From NCBI RefSeq assembly GCF_056746865.1, contig NZ_JBWKMP010000003.1: 64,000 nt of DNA, one strand, 5' to 3'. Source of the DNA: a plasmid. The notes beneath the pieces were generated by a model that was given only the letters and a program-made list of their open reading frames with translations, was not told where the DNA came from and searched no databases. Made by a program: the position numbers and the translations under genes. Shown here one piece after another: positions 27,425-62,263 of this stretch (within the stretch, counting starts at the first letter, position 1; each line of letters starts with the position of its first letter).

Positions 27425-28000
27425 ATGTTAACGGCGAACGATAACGCGTATTTAGAAGATGATCTCGTTTTGAGTGACTTTATAGGGCGACGAGAATGCT
27501 GGACGCAAAAGCGCGAGGAGCTTTATGCAGCGTTAGTTCGTAAAGGCGTCAACATCGAAACCGCACAGAACGGTGATATGACAGTGGTAAGTGTTGGACT
27601 GCACGGCGTAAGTGTGTCAGCAATCAATCATGAGCCGTACATTGCGTTATCCGAGTCGATGGTAAGGTTAGTTAAGTTCCTGAAGTACACAGAAGCGAAT
27701 AACGTGCTCATCGCCAAAAAGAACATCCCGTTCTCATCGGCCTTTTACTGGATGATGAAGGGGCTTGATGCCCGGCGAACATCATGGCCTAAAGGGAGCT
27801 ATATATCGATGCTCCGTGGCAGTGTTGGTAGCAAAGAAAAGCTCGTCGAATTCCTGCCGGAAGAGGCATTCGATATTGTTGAAGGTTGTGATGTGATGGT
27901 TATGCCTCGCCTGGTAATGATGAATGGGGATTTACAGGCGCAGACAGACTGGTTTGCAACTGGAGTTGATATTATCGCTACTGACTGGGAGGTTTTTTGA
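27425..28000 (+). CDS. Hypothetical protein with a C-terminal DUF2829 (Tad2-like) domain
   Basis: C-terminal half carries FYWMMKGLDARRTSWPKGSYISML ... DIIATDWEVF, matching the DUF2829 pattern (G..v.R..W.g ... DllA.DW.iv). Confidence 0.55.
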   Translation: MLTANDNAYLEDDLVLSDFIGRRECWTQKREELYAALVRKGVNIETAQNGDMTVVSVGLHGVSVSAINHEPYIALSESMVRLVKFLKYTEANNVLIAKKNIPFSSAFYWMMKGLDARRTSWPKGSYISMLRGSVGSKEKLVEFLPEEAFDIVEGCDVMVMPRLVMMNGDLQAQTDWFATGVDIIATDWEVF

Positions 28001-37104: not shown

Positions 37105-38191
37105 AAACATCACCGAATTACCAGAGTGGAGAGAGCTGGTAAGCAAATATAGCCATGACTGGGCATTAGCAGCAGAAGAGTTGATGGGTGTTAAGTTAAC
37201 CCACCAGCAAAAGCTAATTGTTGAGGCGATTCAACAAAAAGGTTCAGCAGTCAGCGTCACCACTCCTGAAGGGATAGGCCAAAAGACGGTTATCGCTATA
37301 ATTAGTATTCTTTATACAATCCTGATGCCTGAGTCTAAAACGGTTATTGTTTCCCCAAAGTTCTATAATTGTCGCAGGCAAGTTATCCAATACATAAGTA
37401 CGTATTGGGATAGAGTCAGTAACAGAATCCCATTGCTGGGAGAATATTTTAAAGTCGACGGAAACGGCATCAATCATCGTTACCGGGAATATTGGGGCTG
37501 CGAAATTAAGCCATATCACCGAAATTATGAGGAAGGTTTCGGTGGATATTATGCTGAACATCTTTTAATCATTGTTACGGAGGCGGCTCTTGCTGGCGAT
37601 CGGCTATTCAGCATGTTAAGAGCATCGTTAGTAAGTGACGATTCACGTATACTTTTAATGTCCGCTCCTTCAGAGGAGGAGCATGGACACTTTTACGATT
37701 CCCATCATGGTCGTGCAAAATCAGAAGAAAATCCATGTGGTATTTATACAGCCATCAAGCTGAACGCAGAAGATACCCCCATTATTTCACAAGGTTATCT
37801 TGATAACATTGCAGAAATATATGGTGGTAAAAACAGCGATTACTACCGTCGCATGATTCTTGGTGAGTTTCCAGGTATTAGGGAGGCTGTTCTTGAATCA
37901 GATATGCCGAAAACAATGCGCTTTTCGATGCCTGATGGTAGTGAATGGATAATGCCATTACGAGTGATAGCCCGGCATCATGCACAGCACCACGCCAAAA
38001 AACATGGCGTTACAACATTGGAGTGGTTGAAATCGCACACCATTCCACTCTTCACTGCAGATCACAATGCTATCGTTGAGTGGGCAAAAACAATTCCGTG
38101 GGAGAATGTCGCTGAATACGCCCACATGCTAAAACCGCCGAAAGACAGGCAAGAAATTAGCTGGCTGACAGCAGAAAAAATCATTGAGTGA
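37085..38191 (+). CDS. Terminase-large-subunit-like ATPase-domain paralog with degenerate Walker motifs and no nuclease domain
   Basis: Alignable to the PacB-like gene (HQQKLIVEAIQQ / HQQQQIIQSVQE; HGHFYDSHHGRAKSEENPCGIYTAIKLNAEDTP / [33 protein letters not shown]), but P-loop reads GIGQKT instead of GTGKS and Walker B reads VTE instead of LDE; 368 aa without the VDADGFG nuclease region. Confidence 0.6.
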   Translation: MLMLTPKNITELPEWRELVSKYSHDWALAAEELMGVKLTHQQKLIVEAIQQKGSAVSVTTPEGIGQKTVIAIISILYTILMPESKTVIVSPKFYNCRRQVIQYISTYWDRVSNRIPLLGEYFKVDGNGINHRYREYWGCEIKPYHRNYEEGFGGYYAEHLLIIVTEAALAGDRLFSMLRASLVSDDSRILLMSAPSEEEHGHFYDSHHGRAKSEENPCGIYTAIKLNAEDTPIISQGYLDNIAEIYGGKNSDYYRRMILGEFPGIREAVLESDMPKTMRFSMPDGSEWIMPLRVIARHHAQHHAKKHGVTTLEWLKSHTIPLFTADHNAIVEWAKTIPWENVAEYAHMLKPPKDRQEISWLTAEKIIE

Positions 38192-38226
38192 TAGTAGGAA
38201 GCCCGCCTGGTTGAGCGGGCTTCTTT

Positions 38227-38607
38227 TCAAATATTGGAACCATATAGTTCACGTAGTTTATCCGCTACTGAAGATACGGGGATTTCACCAGTTGCAGCCC
38301 CCACCGCAAGTTCCACCAGCACGGGAGAATCATATACCTGTATACCGTTACGGCGTAGAAATAGCAGCGCACTGTTTAGCGCGGTACGCTTATTGGCATC
38401 ATTGAATATATGCCCTCTCGCTGTAGCCACCAGGTAGGTGGCGGAGACTTCGAAAAGGTCGGTGATCTCTTCGTAGGCAACTCTGGCCTGAACTCTCCCG
38501 ATAATGGCCTCTGCCCTGCCCGGATCTGACATGCCAGGCAGGCCGCCGTAGCGGCTTATATTCGCATCATGAAGCGCAATAAGTTCTTCCGGTGATATAT
38601 GCCTCAT
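38227..38607 (-). CDS. doc: Doc toxin (Fic-fold kinase) of the phd/doc addiction module
   Basis: 126 aa; [78 protein letters not shown] matches P1 Doc as I recall it almost residue for residue. Confidence 0.92.
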
Positions 38608-38828
38608 TATCGGTTAACCAGTTCCTTGTTGGTGGAGTCCAGGGTGTCAAACAGGGATGCAAATTCAGCATCCAGCGCCGCTTTTTTGTAGGCTTCGAAA
38701 GTAGCCTTGCTGACAATTACTGCTGGCTCACGGCCTCTGCGGGTGATTTCAACCTCTTCCCCGGCTTCAACATTGTTGAGCACTTCAGAAAGGTTGCCAC
38801 GCGCGGTACGGAAGTTAATGGATTGCAT
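38607..38828 (-). CDS. phd: Phd antitoxin
   Basis: [73 protein letters not shown] matches P1 Phd as recalled; stop overlaps the doc start. Confidence 0.92.
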
Positions 38829-38900
38829 AAACACCTCGTGTACTCGTTATGTGTACACAATTATAAACTTCACAGGCATAAAGCACCAGCACTTTGCAGC

Positions 38901-40977: not shown

Positions 40978-41271
40978 TTAAGGTTCAGACCAGTTATCTT
41001 CAATAGCAATGCTTAATCTTTGTAGCCATTCTGCTAATTTCAGCATTGCTTCTCTTTCGCTTAAACCACGAGGAAAATCATCAAGCGAAATTGTTGGCTT
41101 GAATCCCCCGCAATTATCCATTTCAACTGTCAGATTTTGTTCCAGCACGGTATTTCTTACGCGGCTATTGTGCCGAAGCAAATATACTGAGCGTGATTTA
41201 TTGGTTTTGTGGTCTAGCTTATATTCGGTAAGTATCATCTGGCTTTTGCCATGATTATTACCTCTCCACAT
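40978..41271 (-). CDS. Hypothetical protein (start trimmed to the internal ATG with RBS)
   Basis: ATG (MWRGNN) preceded by tgaggtaag; the longer 129-aa ORF-track version overlaps an upstream small ORF. Confidence 0.4.
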   Translation of the reverse strand: MWRGNNHGKSQMILTEYKLDHKTNKSRSVYLLRHNSRVRNTVLEQNLTVEMDNCGGFKPTISLDDFPRGLSEREAMLKLAEWLQRLSIAIEDNWSEP

Positions 41272-41278
41272 ACTTACC

Positions 41279-41401
41279 TCACTTAATAAAACAACTCCAT
41301 GCGTAGTTGATGATTTTTTCCCACGTAATATAAATCTGCACTCCGGCAGTAAAACCAAAGCCAACAATTGCTGAAAAAATCAAAACATTTACTTTTGACA
41401 T
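41279..41401 (-). CDS. Small hydrophobic peptide (40 aa)
   Basis: MSKVNVLIFSAIVGFGFTAGVQIYITWEKIINYAWSCFIK; below the ORF-track cutoff; stop lies next to the start of 40978-41271. Confidence 0.3.
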   Translation of the reverse strand: MSKVNVLIFSAIVGFGFTAGVQIYITWEKIINYAWSCFIK

Positions 41402-41449
41402 TATAAATTTTCTCTCGGTGTCGTAGGTGATAGCACCATAATTGATAAT

Positions 41450-41683
41450 TTAGTGAGTTAGCAGTTCCATTTTTTTGATGATTTCCGCATGAGCATCATC
41501 GTTATCAACACTTAGCTCGTTTAATGCTTCTCGCACTACATCAACTTCTTCAGGCTGAAAGAAGTCGTCGCGGTAATCACCAAATAGAACCGAAACCAGC
41601 CTGCCACCAGCAACATCAAGATTGGCGCTAACAGGTGGCTCTTTGCCATCCTCAAATTCGACTACAAAAGTTAATTTTCCCAT
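41450..41683 (-). CDS. Hypothetical acidic protein (77 aa)
   Basis: ORF with conserved operon orientation. Confidence 0.45.
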   Translation of the reverse strand: MGKLTFVVEFEDGKEPPVSANLDVAGGRLVSVLFGDYRDDFFQPEEVDVVREALNELSVDNDDAHAEIIKKMELLTH

Positions 41684-41759
41684 CGTTACCCCCAGAAGAT
41701 AAAAATAGCGGCAATCGCCATAGCTACGCCTACAATCGCAAATGCTTCAGGCCAGCTTA

Positions 41760-45352: not shown

Positions 45353-45966
45353 CCTTCACAGTTGTAATCACTACAGCCTTCAAAATCATATGGGCTGTAC
45401 TGCCAGGTTATTTTTCCGCAATGCGGACAATTCCAACGCACCTTCCCGCTTCGCGACTTCTTTCTTCTGTTCTGCTCTTTCAACCAGTCAGGCATGATCA
45501 AACCTGCGCCCTGAACCATTGTTCTGCGGTTAAAGTTATTGATATTGAACGTCCGGCGCTTTGCTGCATCAGCAATGGAAAATGGCAACCAAACTATTCC
45601 TGGTTCGTTTTTGTTGGCGACGCTAAAGATGGTCGCTTTACTGAAGTCATCTGTTGGCAATCCACCGTGTTGAAGCCAGTAAACATCGTTGCCGTTCCAG
45701 CTACCTTTTTTGTAGGCCACATACGCAGTGCAATCTGACTCAATCAGGCTTTCTGTAGGGATGTACTGGCAATCAACGTGCCACACAGCCATTGCATCCA
45801 CGCTATCAGCGCAAACAGGCTGATCGATATCTCGCCCACAATTCCAGGCTTTTTGGGCTTCTTCCAGCGTGTAAACATGAGCGCGATCGATATCAGAGCT
45901 ATAACCATTGCCGTTATGGCAATGGAATGAGGCGTTATTACCCACAGTTTCACGCAAGCACATCAT
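45340..45966 (-). CDS. Hypothetical protein with a C-terminal zinc-ribbon-like Cys cluster
   Basis: CPHCGK...C..C motif; start trimmed to an internal ATG. Confidence 0.4.
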   Translation of the reverse strand: MMCLRETVGNNASFHCHNGNGYSSDIDRAHVYTLEEAQKAWNCGRDIDQPVCADSVDAMAVWHVDCQYIPTESLIESDCTAYVAYKKGSWNGNDVYWLQHGGLPTDDFSKATIFSVANKNEPGIVWLPFSIADAAKRRTFNINNFNRRTMVQGAGLIMPDWLKEQNRRKKSRSGKVRWNCPHCGKITWQYSPYDFEGCSDYNCEGWRE

Positions 45967-50854: not shown

Positions 50855-51529
50855 TCACTCTCCTTTGATGCGAATGCCAGCGGCACGGGAGTCATTCCAT
50901 CGCTTTACTTCTTCACGAATTACGTCAATGCATTCTTTCGAATCCATTAGGTAATCTTCATCAAAAAGCCTTTCCTGTTCGTTTTCTATCGCAACAATGA
51001 TTGCTTCAACTAACTTTTGTGCCTGAGAACCACTTTCTAACTCTGCAATGCGCTTCTCTGCGGCTTCCAGCTTCTCGCGCATATCGTCAACGTACTCGAC
51101 CAGAGATCCGCCAGCAGGAATTTCGCACTCCTCGACCAGTTGGAAGTAGATATCAGCTGCGGCCCGTGTGTTGCTATGCCTAGCGTCGCCCATCTCACCT
51201 TCACGAAGAGCATCGCGTTCGGCGGTAAGATTGGCTATTTTGCTGTCTTTGCCTTCAAGCTCAACGCGCAGCTTCCCTACCGTTAGCGCAATATCCTCGT
51301 TCTCCTGGTCGCGGCGTTTTATGTATTGCTGGTTTCTTTCCCGTTCATCCAGCAGCGCCAGCACAATGTGTGGCGTTATCAAGGACTCAAATTCGGCAAC
51401 AGCTTGCTCACCTCGCTTGTAATTCTTAATCCCACCTAAATCTTTCGCGTTCTGTGCCGCCTCACGCAGCGCCAGTGTGTCGATGTCGATGTCGATGTTG
51501 CTCATTGTGCCTCCTCGATTTCGTCCCAT
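50855..51529 (-). CDS. ead/Ea22-like family protein
   Basis: Same conserved block as 43941-44693. Confidence 0.55.
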
Positions 51530-58292: not shown

Positions 58293-58623
58293 TCAACTCA
58301 GTAGCTTTGTTAACTCCCTTAATACCAGGTAGAAGAGTAACAAAAATACTAACGCCAGTATTTGCGTGGTCAACGAGGCGTTCATAAACAGAACAATTAG
58401 CTTTAACAATTCGAGAATAACGTCCATGTCATTCACACTATTTAATTTTTAATCTACAGCCAGCAAACAATGAAGCTGGCCCCCGCATAAAGATTAATGA
58501 AAGTCACTTGTCACCAGTGAGGGGATTTATGAACCACATCCCCCTGAACTGGTGGACTGTCTGTTTCTCGCATTTCACACCCTGCATACAGTTCCCCCCA
58601 GGTTATGACTGTGAGGAACTGTT

Positions 58624-58953
58624 ATGAGTTACAGCAGGCTCGACGATCGATGCATTGAAGACGATGTGCTGCGCGCACTATTCCATCAGGAGATGATCAA
58701 GCGGGTATCGGAGTACCACTCCGATAATTTCCAGTACACGATAAAAATTGATGAGGTTTATCGCTCAGACCTGGCGGCCTATCGCGCCTATGGCAACGCT
58801 GATTTGCGCTGGGTATTTCGCGTGCTGGTGGGCCATGAGTCAGAAATGGAAGAAATGCCGGTCGGGACAACGTTAACTCTTCCTGACGCAGCATGGCTAA
58901 GAAACAAGATTCGCGATTACGCTGGCTCGGCACCGGAGATAGAAAATGCCTGA
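58624..58953 (+). CDS. Hypothetical protein (109 aa)
   Basis: ORF overlapping the next gene start. Confidence 0.5.
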   Translation: MSYSRLDDRCIEDDVLRALFHQEMIKRVSEYHSDNFQYTIKIDEVYRSDLAAYRAYGNADLRWVFRVLVGHESEMEEMPVGTTLTLPDAAWLRNKIRDYAGSAPEIENA

Positions 58954-60142
58954 CTTCCTGAAAAATCAGGACGGGCGATATATCACTGACGGCCTGTCCT
59001 CTAAGGATTTCACACGCGTATTTGAACTCATCAGGAAAGAGCAAAACCGCAAACGCCGCCAGGCGAACAGGACACTCACGCCGGGCAGGCTTAGGAATAA
59101 ATCAGCCGAAGACATTCTTAAGCTGGGGAAAAAGAAAGGCGGCACGTTCTTTACGCGTGACGATCTGAAAGGCTTCGAAAAGCTGCGAAGCAAAGCACGC
59201 GAAAAATATGACAGCAAGACGGCTGGCATTACATACGCACAACTGGTAGCGTCCAGCCAGGCTATCGATATTAAGCGAGCAAATAACGCCGTAGACGACG
59301 GTTCTGGTATCAAAAGAGCTACGCCCGTATCTCTTCGTCACAATGTGATTAATATCCGCGTGGAAGCGTCCGATATATCCGTTCACCAGCACCACATTGT
59401 CCGGGTACGTTTTGAAGAATGGGATCAGATGGTCGATGACATCGCAGAAGACGATAAATCAGCCCTGAAAGTCACAAAATCACTGTGTGCCGGGCGAGTG
59501 TCTTTCGACTGTGACTGCGGTCGCCATCAATACTGGTATCGCTACATCGCCACTGCGGGTAACTTTGCCCTGGCCCCGCCAAAAGAATACGCCTATCCAA
59601 AAGTTCGCAACCCTAAGCTGCAAGGCGTCGCCTGTAAACATGTGATCCACTCAATGACACGACTACAGTCTGCCAGTTGGCAGATGAGTATTGCTCGTGC
59701 GCTACAAAAGGCTGCAACGCAAATTGCATTTGGTGACGATCGCCGCCGTACAACCAAACACTTCTCAAAAGAAGACGAGAAGGAGTTTAATCGCAATCGT
59801 AGCAGTAAAACGAACGTTGAAGCCGCCAAACGCGAATGGAGGCTCTATCAGAAGCGCCAGGCAGCTTTAAGTACAAAACTGGCGAAGGACAACGGCAAGA
59901 TCGACAAGCTACGTGACCAACTGACCAGGGCCAGAAAGTTGTCAGACGCACAGAAAAAACGAGCGGCAGCAAAAGAAGCGGCCTTGCAACGTGAGAAACA
60001 GAAAAACAAGGAGCTTCAGCAACGCCTTGCCGATCAGTTCGCACTGAAGAAGCAGGCGTTCATTGATGCGCTGGTCATGGCAGGAACGTCACCTGGGCAA
60101 GCTGAAAAAATGTTTATGGAGTACGTGAAGAAAGGTTCTTGA
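58946..60142 (+). CDS. Hypothetical 398-aa protein with a Cys cluster and a basic coiled-coil C-terminus
   Basis: CAGRVSFDCDCGRH motif; KR-rich coiled coil. Confidence 0.5.
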   Translation: MPDFLKNQDGRYITDGLSSKDFTRVFELIRKEQNRKRRQANRTLTPGRLRNKSAEDILKLGKKKGGTFFTRDDLKGFEKLRSKAREKYDSKTAGITYAQLVASSQAIDIKRANNAVDDGSGIKRATPVSLRHNVINIRVEASDISVHQHHIVRVRFEEWDQMVDDIAEDDKSALKVTKSLCAGRVSFDCDCGRHQYWYRYIATAGNFALAPPKEYAYPKVRNPKLQGVACKHVIHSMTRLQSASWQMSIARALQKAATQIAFGDDRRRTTKHFSKEDEKEFNRNRSSKTNVEAAKREWRLYQKRQAALSTKLAKDNGKIDKLRDQLTRARKLSDAQKKRAAAKEAALQREKQKNKELQQRLADQFALKKQAFIDALVMAGTSPGQAEKMFMEYVKKGS

Positions 60143-60176
60143 TTGACAACAAAGGCGGTCATACAGACCGCCGAAC

Positions 60177-60557
60177 TCATACACCAACCAGGCTTTCAAG
60201 AGGAATGCCAAACTGGGAATGTAAACGACGAATCATAGGTAACGTTAAATTTCGTGTTCCATTTAGCACTTCGTAAACACGATTTGACTTACCAATCGCC
60301 GGTTCCAGATCCTTCACGGTCAGCCCTTGCTGTTCCATACGGAATTTAATGGCCTCAATAGGTGATGGTGGCTCAATTGGGTAATGTTTTTTCTCGTACT
60401 CCTCAATGAGAAGACACATGACCTCAAAGAAATCACCTTCCGGGGTGTTCATTTCCGGTTCGTTATCGAACATCGGTTCGACCGCACGCAGTGCGGCCTC
60501 ATAATCTTGTTCTGTACGGATAGGTTTAATGTTCATTAATTCCAAAGGAAAGCCCAC
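60177..60557 (-). CDS. Long-form HigA-family HTH antitoxin-like protein, no adjacent cognate toxin
   Basis: C-terminal HTH GKSNRVYEVLNGTRNLTLPMIRRLHSQFGIP and N-terminal PIRTEQDYEAAL region typical of the longer HigA-type antitoxins. Confidence 0.5.
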   Translation of the reverse strand: MGFPLELMNIKPIRTEQDYEAALRAVEPMFDNEPEMNTPEGDFFEVMCLLIEEYEKKHYPIEPPSPIEAIKFRMEQQGLTVKDLEPAIGKSNRVYEVLNGTRNLTLPMIRRLHSQFGIPLESLVGV

Positions 60558-60592
60558 TTGTTAAGTGGGCTTTTTGTATGTGTTTAACTATA

Positions 60593-60931
60593 TCAGGCTG
60601 CTTTTTTATTCAGGTTCCGCTGAGAAATAAATTTTTCAGCAGTATTGATACGACTTAACTCTTCCTGAACGCGCATATCATTTTCGACTTCCCACAGGTC
60701 TACTGCGGTCTGAAGATTAATCCAAAAATCTACAGAAGTATCGAATGCTTTTGCCAGGCGATATGCCATATCCATCGTTAGCTTACGATTGTTATTAACA
60801 AGAGCACTTACGGTGTTACGATGAACATGAAGTATTTCTGCTAACTCGTTGATCTTAAGCTCTAACGGCTCCAGGTATTCGTACAGCAGGATATCACCTA
60901 CAGTCGTCGGTTTTCTGGTTGCCTGTTTCAT
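60593..60931 (-). CDS. higA: HigA antitoxin (Xre-type HTH)
   Basis: TVGDILLYEYLEPLELKINELAEILHVHRNTVSALVNNNRKLTMDMAYRLAKAFDTSVDFWINLQ matches the HigA antidote family; directly downstream of higB. Confidence 0.8.
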   Translation of the reverse strand: MKQATRKPTTVGDILLYEYLEPLELKINELAEILHVHRNTVSALVNNNRKLTMDMAYRLAKAFDTSVDFWINLQTAVDLWEVENDMRVQEELSRINTAEKFISQRNLNKKAA

Positions 60932-61002
60932 TTTTTGCCCTTACTAGCGTGCGTATTAAGTGGACTCTGGTCAGTACCTGGCCCATCCGCCGGGTATTTG
61001 TT

Positions 61003-61305
61003 TTAGTATTTGTGAGGGTCGAGATACAAGTCCTCGGCCTTTCCGTTAACCCACTTAAAAATTAACCTGTATTGCTTATTCACCCTTATTGATGAATAGC
61101 CGTTTAGCTTCCCTGACAATTCCTCATACCGATTACCTGGTGGTGATCTCAAGTCCTTCCAAGTAGTTGCAGCATTGATAATATCCAGCTTCCGCAACAA
61201 TGTAATCTGAATATCAGAAGGTATCTTTTTGTGTGGTATTGAAAATTCAAAAAAATCATCAAGCCACTCATCCCTGAAATTCTTTATGTTAATCTTTTTG
61301 CTCAT
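61003..61305 (-). CDS. higB: HigB toxin (RelE/ParE superfamily)
   Basis: LLRKLDIINAATTWKDLRSPPGNRYEELSGKLNGYSSIRVNKQYRLIFKW matches the HigB killer-protein signature. Confidence 0.8.
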   Translation of the reverse strand: MSKKINIKNFRDEWLDDFFEFSIPHKKIPSDIQITLLRKLDIINAATTWKDLRSPPGNRYEELSGKLNGYSSIRVNKQYRLIFKWVNGKAEDLYLDPHKY

Positions 61306-61468
61306 CGATCATTTTATCCTCCATGATTATTAATGAATGTCATAATGATAGCGCACTGTTGCACCGTGCGCAAGTGCATATTGTAACAATTCCCCTCCTC
61401 CATCCAAAATCACAATCTCCCGAAAATCTTCCTTTCGATACCTGATAAATCGACCTTTGAGGACGCTT

Positions 61469-62263
61469 ATGGGCCGTTTTGATGAATGGCTTGCTGATGA
61501 TGCAAGCCTGATGAGAAAGGGAACAGAACATGACAGCACGCAGAGAGAAGAGACAACGACGGTTGAAGCGAATGAAGGAAGCACAACGGAAAATGGGAAG
61601 GTCAGTACAGGGCCATTCAGTATTCTGGAAGAACACGCTGCCACCGAAGCAGATAGCCGCCATGATAATTGGCCTGATAATGCTGGTGACTCTGTTACGG
61701 AAGTGATTGAACCTGACATCGCCCCCCTACCGGCATCGCTCGCTAACAGAGAACCAAACCAGCAGCTTAAAACCCGATATAACGGACACAAAGCGTTCAA
61801 CGACCAGATCCGCGCCGATTGGATGCTCATTATTGAATCAAGCCCTGACGCATTCGAGGCGCTTTTATATCGCCCGGCTGATGGCACCTATGGCGTCGTA
61901 AACGATGAAACAGGTGAAGAGTCATTCACGCAACTGGACAACAACCAGCGTGAGCTTACCTATCTGGAACCGGAAATCGTATACGTCCTGGACAACCCGG
62001 ACGGAAGGGATTCGTTTCATGCCATTGATGCCGATGGAGAACAGGATGGTCTTGCTGATGAAGTGCTAATCCTGCGTATTGCTGCAAACAACGTACCTGT
62101 TGGTTCAATCCTGGAATGGAACGAAGAAATGGCGAATGGCCTCGCCCGCCGCTGGTGGTACGTGCACCGAATCTTCAGCTACGGAACACAACACGTCGGC
62201 TCCCTTTATTACTGCATCCCGGCCAGGAACTTTGATACCACTCAAAACGGAGTGATCGAATGA
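61469..62263 (+). CDS. Hypothetical protein, first gene of a coupled plus-strand operon (possible virion morphogenesis)
   Basis: ATG at 61469 with RBS gagga; acidic N-terminal region. Confidence 0.5.
   Translation: MGRFDEWLADDASLMRKGTEHDSTQREETTTVEANEGSTTENGKVSTGPFSILEEHAATEADSRHDNWPDNAGDSVTEVIEPDIAPLPASLANREPNQQLKTRYNGHKAFNDQIRADWMLIIESSPDAFEALLYRPADGTYGVVNDETGEESFTQLDNNQRELTYLEPEIVYVLDNPDGRDSFHAIDADGEQDGLADEVLILRIAANNVPVGSILEWNEEMANGLARRWWYVHRIFSYGTQHVGSLYYCIPARNFDTTQNGVIE

Follow-up and report, generated by a model that had tools for sequence, protein, structure and literature searches.

The window analysed here is a stretch of 64,000 nucleotides from a plasmid (contig NZ_JBWKMP010000003.1, assembly GCF_056746865.1), in which a toxin gene, higB, its antitoxin gene, higA, and a third gene for a HigA-like protein with a helix-turn-helix (HTH) follow one another on the minus strand. 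We find that the higBA cassette replaced the toxin of an older, unrelated HigB/HigA pair, and that the third gene is, with high probability, the antitoxin left behind by this exchange of a toxin for a complete toxin-antitoxin (TA) module: either retained immunity or a relic, mostly decaying elsewhere and intact in the window. The relic is of an ordinary kind, with a readable history. Orphan antitoxins and anti-addiction are known concepts, and the third gene had been annotated as HigA-like before; new here are the identity of the lost cognate toxin, the precise ends of the replaced segment, and the evidence from the population that two alleles interchange while the orphan decays.

The window is a D6-like (P1-type) phage-plasmid of E. 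coli. Nucleotide comparison gave 92 % identity of the region to Escherichia phage D6, a P1-like phage-plasmid, and 92-100 % identity to non-mobilizable plasmids of ~90 kb from E. coli, Salmonella and Shigella; in NZ_JBTZPF010000006.1, a near-identical plasmid of 89.8 kb, the locus is 100 % identical. The three-gene cassette is inserted between P1 gp25-like and P1 gp7-like tail genes, the former convergent with it and the latter divergent from it. As the initial annotation had read from the sequence, higB, higA and the HTH gene stand in this order on the same strand, here the minus strand (61305..60177), and given their strong profile matches they are not chance open reading frames (ORFs). D6 carries them annotated as a RelE-family toxin and two ‘HigA family’ antitoxins.

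By sequence, fold and ancestry the third gene is a HigA of the E. coli K-12 type; by context, having neither toxin nor operator, it is an orphan. Its best solved relatives are the E. coli K-12/Shigella HigA proteins from HigBA complexes (5ifg/5ycl; phmmer E 2e-8, residues 12-119). The AlphaFold (AF2) model of the protein (pLDDT 91) is all-helical, and the top four Foldseek matches to it are E. coli/Shigella HigA chains from HigBA or HigA structures, including 6kmq_B, 6kml_B and 5ycl. The two-domain fold of K-12-type HigA antitoxins, a helical N-terminal domain followed by a Cro/C1 HTH, is present, with the HTH_3 domain at residues 63-115, and the protein database holds thousands of homologues of 119 amino acids (aa) in Enterobacterales. 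These HigA matches in sequence and predicted fold agree with the earlier description of a toxin-less, long-form HigA-like gene behind a complete higB-higA pair. The HTH and the long HigA architecture in that description stand, whereas the length of 126 aa had to be corrected to 119 aa, with the start at ATG 60536 (MNIKPIR...). The GTG at 60557 that would give 126 aa was rejected as a start codon; it lies within the 3' arm of a hairpin, and all homologues, D6 and RefSeq start at the ATG.

A distant cognate toxin, which the initial annotation had suggested looking for, was found: a PF09907 HigB lies upstream of the identical antitoxin in the same slot of sibling D6-like plasmids. Wherever the context of third-gene homologues was examined, a 100-aa toxin of this family ends 4-5 bp before the start codon, as in Kluyvera chromosomes (83 % identity), Salmonella lambdoid prophages (87 %) and an E. 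coli O26:H11 prophage (94 %). A scan of IMG/VR viral contigs for third-gene homologues yielded 63 loci, with a PF09907 toxin directly upstream in 43 and the arrangement of the window, higB(PF05015)-higA-third gene, in 16. The PF09907 toxins match K-12 HigB as well as the PADLOC profile PD-Lambda-2_A (E ~1e-40). Seven of the 43 loci (L015-L020 and L053) are D6-like and read gp7 / PF09907 toxin / antitoxin / gp25, with an antitoxin 99-100 % identical in aa to the third gene. The very same protein, WP_021551809.1, is the antitoxin of the toxin-bearing NZ_LR890273 and NZ_CP034790 and the orphan of NZ_OY757108 and NZ_JBTZPF010000006.

The slot between gp7 and gp25 thus occurs as two alleles: A, with toxin and antitoxin, and B, the form of the window. 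Allele A consists of a PF09907 HigB toxin (WP_021551810.1; 71473-71775 in NZ_CP034790) and, 5 bp further on, the 119-aa K-12-type HigA, behind a promoter with two TCCCA-N3-TGGGA palindromes. MOB-suite types both alleles as rep_cluster_1704. DNA homology between the window and allele A extends across gp7 as far as 61407 (…GATTGTGATTT) and sets in again precisely with the start codon of the third gene, ATG 60536; from these breaks we conclude that 870 bp replaced 390 bp. Between the left junction, after GATTGTGATTT at ~61407, and the right junction at the ATG, the window (61406..60537) holds a promoter with a palindrome, higB, higA and the hairpin, and the allele-A counterpart holds an operator-promoter and the PF09907 toxin. 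The same junctions recur in all allele-B loci examined. Because the toxin-antitoxin pair is the widespread ancestral unit, we regard the orphan state as derived.

The replacement left the third gene bare of its usual companions. A tblastn search of the 64-kb window and the near-identical 89.8-kb plasmid retrieved no PF09907 toxin or remnant of one (E > 0.5 overall, E > 1 in the window), and the window lacks the toxin that immediately precedes K-12-type HigA in one operon. In 13 of 15 diverged PF09907 modules the upstream -10 region overlaps with the palindrome TCCCA-N3-TGGGA, which, being kept across them, is very probably the operator of the K-12-type HigA family that partners PF09907; modules sharing (G)TCCCA-N3-TGGGA(C) have antitoxins that are 47-100 % identical. 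This longer form was located at 2625-2675 of L015, and also upstream of PF09907 toxins in L005, L010, L031, L048, L051, L054, L057, L058, L070 and L088. Neither the window nor the 89.8-kb plasmid contains an exact copy of TCCCA-N3-TGGGA, and matches with one mismatch are at chance level (3 observed, 1.8 expected). The palindromic operators in its own promoter, through which K-12-type HigA regulates itself, are accordingly missing, as exact copies, for the third gene of the window.

Its translation signal differs as well. The Shine-Dalgarno sequence is GGAG in allele A, where it sits inside the 3' end of the toxin gene, GGA in the window and GTA in D6. Upstream, the hairpin that the initial annotation had placed between higA and the third gene is confirmed: it begins 17 nt past the higA stop codon (60575..60547) and has an 11-bp stem (centroid -15.5 kcal/mol, z = -3.2). 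The stem is followed by CCUUUGG on the sense strand and by a U-run on the opposite strand, and the structure probably serves higBA as a leaky or bidirectional terminator; an E. albertii chromosomal copy of the locus keeps it, with a better U-tail. With its own operator-promoter replaced and a hairpin in front, the third gene would depend for expression on read-through of this hairpin. The hairpin, the weak GGA and the lack of an operator together suggest that the orphan is probably weakly expressed. At the 3' end, the intrinsic terminator (60172..60154) is common to allele A, whose homology to the window reaches 60152.

We propose the following course of events. The allele-A promoter and PF09907 toxin would have been swapped precisely, up to the antitoxin ATG, for a self-contained PF05015 higBA cassette. 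Because the cell, or co-resident sibling copies, still hold the toxin, a replacement that removes the toxin gene is tolerated only if the antitoxin stays. Displacement of the toxin with retention of the antitoxin would be the only order of events that a cell survives, and a swap that leaves the antitoxin ORF untouched from the first codon on would belong to that surviving class. After the swap the plasmid would impose a new PF05015 HigB/HigA addiction, and the orphan would confer immunity to post-segregational killing by allele-A siblings, which, both alleles being of replicon cluster 1704, are probably incompatible competitors. The orphan has the same protein sequence as the allele-A antitoxin and could for that reason still neutralise the PF09907 toxin. 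The orphan would thereafter have come under relaxed selection and decayed in most lineages, the window copy being intact.

Decay is indeed widespread. The higBA cassette occurs in 75 of 5,426 complete E. coli genomes, always on a plasmid; a full-length third gene accompanies it in only 24 of the 75, and 19 genomes have allele A instead. In ~51 of the 75 higBA plasmids nothing beyond nt 182 of the third gene is left, a truncated form of 66 aa that lacks the HTH (as in L004 and L059-L067), and likewise 73 of 112 PLSDB matches keep only nt 1-182. Other copies are disrupted by a stop codon at Q69 (L047) or by a frameshift (L056). Truncated copies being prevalent, most allele-B plasmids evidently succeed without orphan immunity. 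Synonymous and nonsynonymous segregating sites number 26 and 1 in allele A versus 45 and 14 in allele B (Fisher p = 0.03), and this excess of nonsynonymous sites, together with the disruptions, points to relaxed constraint in the orphan state.

Several observations weigh against a retained and mostly decaying antitoxin. Once the pseudogene L047 is left out, the allele-B counts fall to 40 and 9 and significance is lost (p = 0.087). The large truncated class is a single deletion that spread, not many independent losses, and the direction from A to B derives from the ubiquity of the toxin-antitoxin pair elsewhere rather than from a rooted phylogeny. Moreover, intact orphan copies differ almost only synonymously (pairwise dN/dS 0.02-0.17), and the orphan could therefore still be selected and not be a mere relic. 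As proof of selection on the orphan, however, dN/dS was dropped, since it is confounded by recombination. The third gene has a dS of 0.1-0.39, compared with at most 5 synonymous differences in the adjacent higA, and its haplotypes are common to alleles A and B: the orphan L082 and the toxin-linked L015 are identical in nucleotides, and L003 and L016 differ by 1 nt. These shared haplotypes indicate repeated exchange of the two cassettes through homologous recombination in which the antitoxin gene provides one of the arms. Together with a dS far above that of higA, they further suggest that much of the orphan diversity was probably imported from toxin-linked copies.

The same data bear on the alternative that survives best, namely that the orphan is expressed and selected as an anti-addiction or competition factor, by which allele B invades or displaces allele-A siblings, or survives in hosts with PF09907 HigB prophages, and escapes death from the toxin left over. 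We consider this possible but rather doubtful. The cognate toxin is absent in cis and present on competing elements of the same hosts, that is, on allele-A siblings, probably incompatible as members of the same replicon cluster, and on prophages of Shiga toxin-producing E. coli; the orphan protein is identical to the allele-A antitoxin. A further ~150 chromosomal copies in complete E. coli genomes could serve as targets, and the one examined (O26:H11 11368) is a prophage HigB/HigA module with an antitoxin 94 % identical. The window copy is intact and differs from allele-A copies only synonymously, and the junction lies exactly at the ATG. There are also precedents in anti-addiction and plasmid-competition models, whose logic has been reviewed (PMC12548467), and in the orphan antitoxins of phages, a known counter-defence class (10.1101/2024.07.11.602962). 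Yet most allele-B plasmids have lost the HTH half of the gene and others carry a nonsense mutation or frameshift, nonsynonymous polymorphism is higher in the orphan state, the Shine-Dalgarno sequence is weak and a hairpin stands upstream, and recombination with toxin-linked copies accounts for the low dN/dS. An anti-addiction role is thus plausible, though weakened by the signs of relaxed constraint and by frequent decay, and an anti-defence role may be possible. We accordingly rate a retained antitoxin, mostly a decaying relic and potentially protective in the window, above an actively maintained weapon.

More speculatively, and in our view improbably, the locus could be seen as a natural case in which an addiction module was replaced and immunity to the old one kept, for use in the warfare of incompatible phage-plasmids; the antitoxin gene would then double as a homology arm for repeated cassette exchange. 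If this were true, allele B would kill cells that lose it through PF05015 HigB, while being itself immune to killing by allele A and possibly to PF09907 HigB prophages. Three natural states, toxin with antitoxin, new TA module with intact orphan and new TA module with truncated orphan, bear on whether the orphan is an anti-addiction factor or a decaying scar. The question has some reach: D6-like phage-plasmids are often found in E. coli and Salmonella of clinical and animal origin, and ~1.7 % of complete E. coli genomes hold a D6-like plasmid with this locus. The stability of these plasmids has been attributed partly to higBA, and the locus shows one addiction module exchanged for another on a mobile element.

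Genes 1 and 2 form an ordinary Rts1-type HigBA module, already known from D6-like plasmids, in which higBA has been cited as a post-segregational killing system (PMC6799933). HigB matches PF05015 HigB-like_toxin over its full length (E 1.2e-34, profile positions 1-91/91) and phrog_3066, ‘toxin of TA system’ (E 2e-35); D6 and RefSeq plasmids list it as a RelE/ParE family toxin, and one RefSeq accession of the PF05015 HigB is WP_016262381.1. HigA matches TIGR02607 antidote_HigA above the curated cut-off (E 7.9e-30, positions 2-80/81) and HTH_3 (E 7e-11), and its 112-aa protein is almost without variation in all allele-B plasmids. Upstream of higB, a putative promoter with -35 TTGCGC (61373..61368) and -10 TATCAT (61350..61345), separated by a spacer of 17 nt, may be read from the sequence at 61373..61345; a consensus promoter scan did not flag it. 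It contains the inverted repeat GCGCAC-N9-GTGCGC (61371..61351), and in the alignment this palindrome is kept in both higB haplotypes. The two haplotypes of higB differ by 12 synonymous and 11 nonsynonymous changes with zero variation inside each, next to a nearly invariant higA protein. With two haplotypes each of higB and gp7, the gp7-higB-higA region is a recombination mosaic.

No donor of the higBA cassette was identified. Enterobacter higBA modules share ~70 % nt identity with the window, in the coding region only, and the closest copies outside D6-like plasmids are E. albertii chromosomal fragments, themselves derived from D6-like allele B. In E. albertii chromosomes a 1,365-bp fragment of allele B, 96 % identical, lies between dinQ and slp (L092 1634-2994, CP045690.1; window 61802..60438). 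Part of gp7, both higBA genes intact, the hairpin and 99 nt from the start of the third gene make up this fragment, a TA module of plasmid origin that has survived the loss of its surroundings.

This distribution decides against a tripartite higB-higA-HTH system, in which the third gene would serve the PF05015 higBA operon as a further antitoxin or as a dedicated regulator of its transcription, a role for which its HTH and its position, 56 bp beyond higA and on that gene's strand, could speak. The third gene is not co-conserved with higBA. Where the third gene is cut short, higBA is intact and its proteins hardly vary, both in the ~51 E. coli plasmids and on the E. albertii chromosome, and the homologous higBA of Enterobacter kobei (81 % HigA identity) is a chromosomal two-gene module with neither hairpin nor third gene. 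Moreover, the third-gene family partners PF09907, a different toxin family, and the TIGR02607 HigA already has its own HTH and a promoter palindrome. The third gene is dispensable for higBA and is not a component of that module, which contradicts the initial suggestion that it might act as a regulator, as far as higBA is concerned. Co-occurrence largely refutes the tripartite or regulator model, so that we give it very little credence, and in annotation the third gene should not be taken as a second antitoxin of the adjacent HigB.

An equally improbable partner is the gene that follows the third gene in D6. The third gene would then regulate, or act as antitoxin for, a downstream D6 orf73-like gene of 242 aa that has been deleted in the window. 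In D6 and many of its siblings such a gene does follow at a distance of 60-65 bp, on the same strand, yet the two come and go independently: toxin and antitoxin occur without orf73 (L016, L017 and NZ_CP034790), the orphan occurs without it (the window, L003 and L079), a truncated third gene occurs beside an intact orf73 (L004 and L059-L067), and elsewhere the conserved partner of the third gene is the upstream PF09907 toxin. This independent presence and absence argues against the pairing, which was rejected. The orf73-type gene encodes a predicted membrane/coiled-coil protein of 242-245 aa (phrog_8191) and, in many D6-like plasmids with either allele, lies downstream of the third gene; Pfam and PADLOC searches gave no match for orf73. 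Its versions are mutually 36-100 % identical, which suggests a fast-turnover cargo gene in the same slot.

Least probable of all is a counter-defence function, whereby the free HigA-like domain would mimic the N-terminal domain of PD-lambda-2B, a toxic HTH-peptidase, or repress the PD-lambda-2 promoter: PD-lambda-2 is an abortive infection (Abi) defence in which the A component neutralises B (PMC9519451), and the PADLOC profile PD-Lambda-2_B is matched by the third gene over positions 1-119 (E 7e-43), just as the PF09907 toxins match PD-Lambda-2_A, but a two-gene toxin/antitoxin ancestry fully explains the similarity, titration of PD-lambda-2A is expected to release toxicity and not to block it, and frequent gene loss argues against a strong benefit. 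Membership in such a system was likewise rejected. The match covers profile positions 1-119 of 402 and the protein stops at residue 119, with no ImmA/IrrE-type peptidase domain and no A or C component; the neighbouring genes higB and higA gave no PADLOC match to PD-lambda-2 components, and the window contains no PF09907/PD-lambda-2A-like gene.

The coordinates of the locus are collected in the table below.

Table. Features of the gp25-gp7 slot, in window coordinates except for the last row.
Feature	Position	Strand	Basis or remark
gp25-like tail protein (P1)	58946..60142	+	Conserved right border of slot; D6 annotation; 96-98 % aa identity across loci
Intrinsic terminator 3' of third gene, GGCGGTC-loop-GACCGCC then UUUGUUGU	60154..60172	-	Between convergent third gene and gp25
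Orphan K-12-type HigA antitoxin, 119 aa; N-terminal helical toxin-binding domain, C-terminal HTH	60177..60536	-	WP_021551809.1
Hairpin, 11-bp stem, 3-nt loop	60547..60575	-	3' end of incoming higBA cassette, inside replaced segment
higA, cognate short HigA antitoxin, N-terminal HTH, 112 aa, WP_000806445.1 (RefSeq)	60593..60931	-	Profile match
higB, PF05015 toxin (Proteus vulgaris Rts1 HigB type), RelE-fold mRNA interferase, 100 aa	61003..61305	-	Profile match
Putative promoter/operator region of higBA cassette	61306..61406	-	Sequence reading and alignment
gp7-like tail protein (P1)	61457..62263	+	Conserved left border of slot; D6 annotation; two haplotypes, 98 % or 79 % aa identity
orf73-type gene	L001 4274-5002 (D6 orf73); L002 1774-2511; L004 1774-2502		Absent from window at ~60143-60176

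Further cargo was noted on related plasmids. NZ_JBTZPF010000006.1 is annotated with a phd/doc addiction module (50898-51499, mapping to ~38150-38865 of the window) and a Tad2-family anti-Thoeris gene (41136-41711, mapping to ~27430-28000), and these annotations in a near-identical plasmid suggest an element with at least two addiction systems and anti-defence cargo. In NZ_OY757108.1 a further ‘HigA family addiction module antitoxin’ lies just upstream of a gp26-like baseplate gene (45463-45744; L003 1-129). At the equivalent place in the window, ~58300-58620, the ORF list has no entry of ≥60 aa, nor any of ≥30 aa from 58,500.

Compared with known systems, the higB-higA pair resembles Rts1-type HigB/HigA (PF05015 and TIGR02607) in both full-length profiles, the toxin-first order and the promoter palindrome. 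The module is itself ordinary; what sets it apart is that it is carried as a moron between phage-plasmid tail genes. The third gene shares the two-domain HigA architecture, in sequence and predicted fold, with the E. coli K-12/Shigella HigB-HigA system (YgjN-YgjM; PDB 5IFG, 6KML, 6KMQ and 5YCL), and its allele-A partner is a PF09907 toxin that matches K-12 HigB (E 1e-7) and precedes the antitoxin in the same order. In contrast to that system, it is only ~30 % identical to K-12 HigA and has lost toxin and operator-promoter in the window. PD-lambda-2B is a HigA-like domain fused to a peptidase, the HTH-peptidase being the toxic part (Vassallo et al. 2022, PMC9519451). The third gene resembles the HigA-like N-terminal domain of this protein and the allele-A toxin resembles PD-lambda-2A, whereas the third gene has no peptidase domain. 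Antitoxin homologues that lack a toxin on one element and meet the matching toxin on competing elements define anti-addiction modules and orphan antitoxins, a likeness that the third gene shares. Examples are the chromosomal ccd locus, set against ccd of the F plasmid, and the phage proteins Dmd and AdfN. In our case neutralisation in trans is predicted only and many lineages are losing the gene, and, unlike the known modules, the orphan arose in situ by replacement of its toxin.

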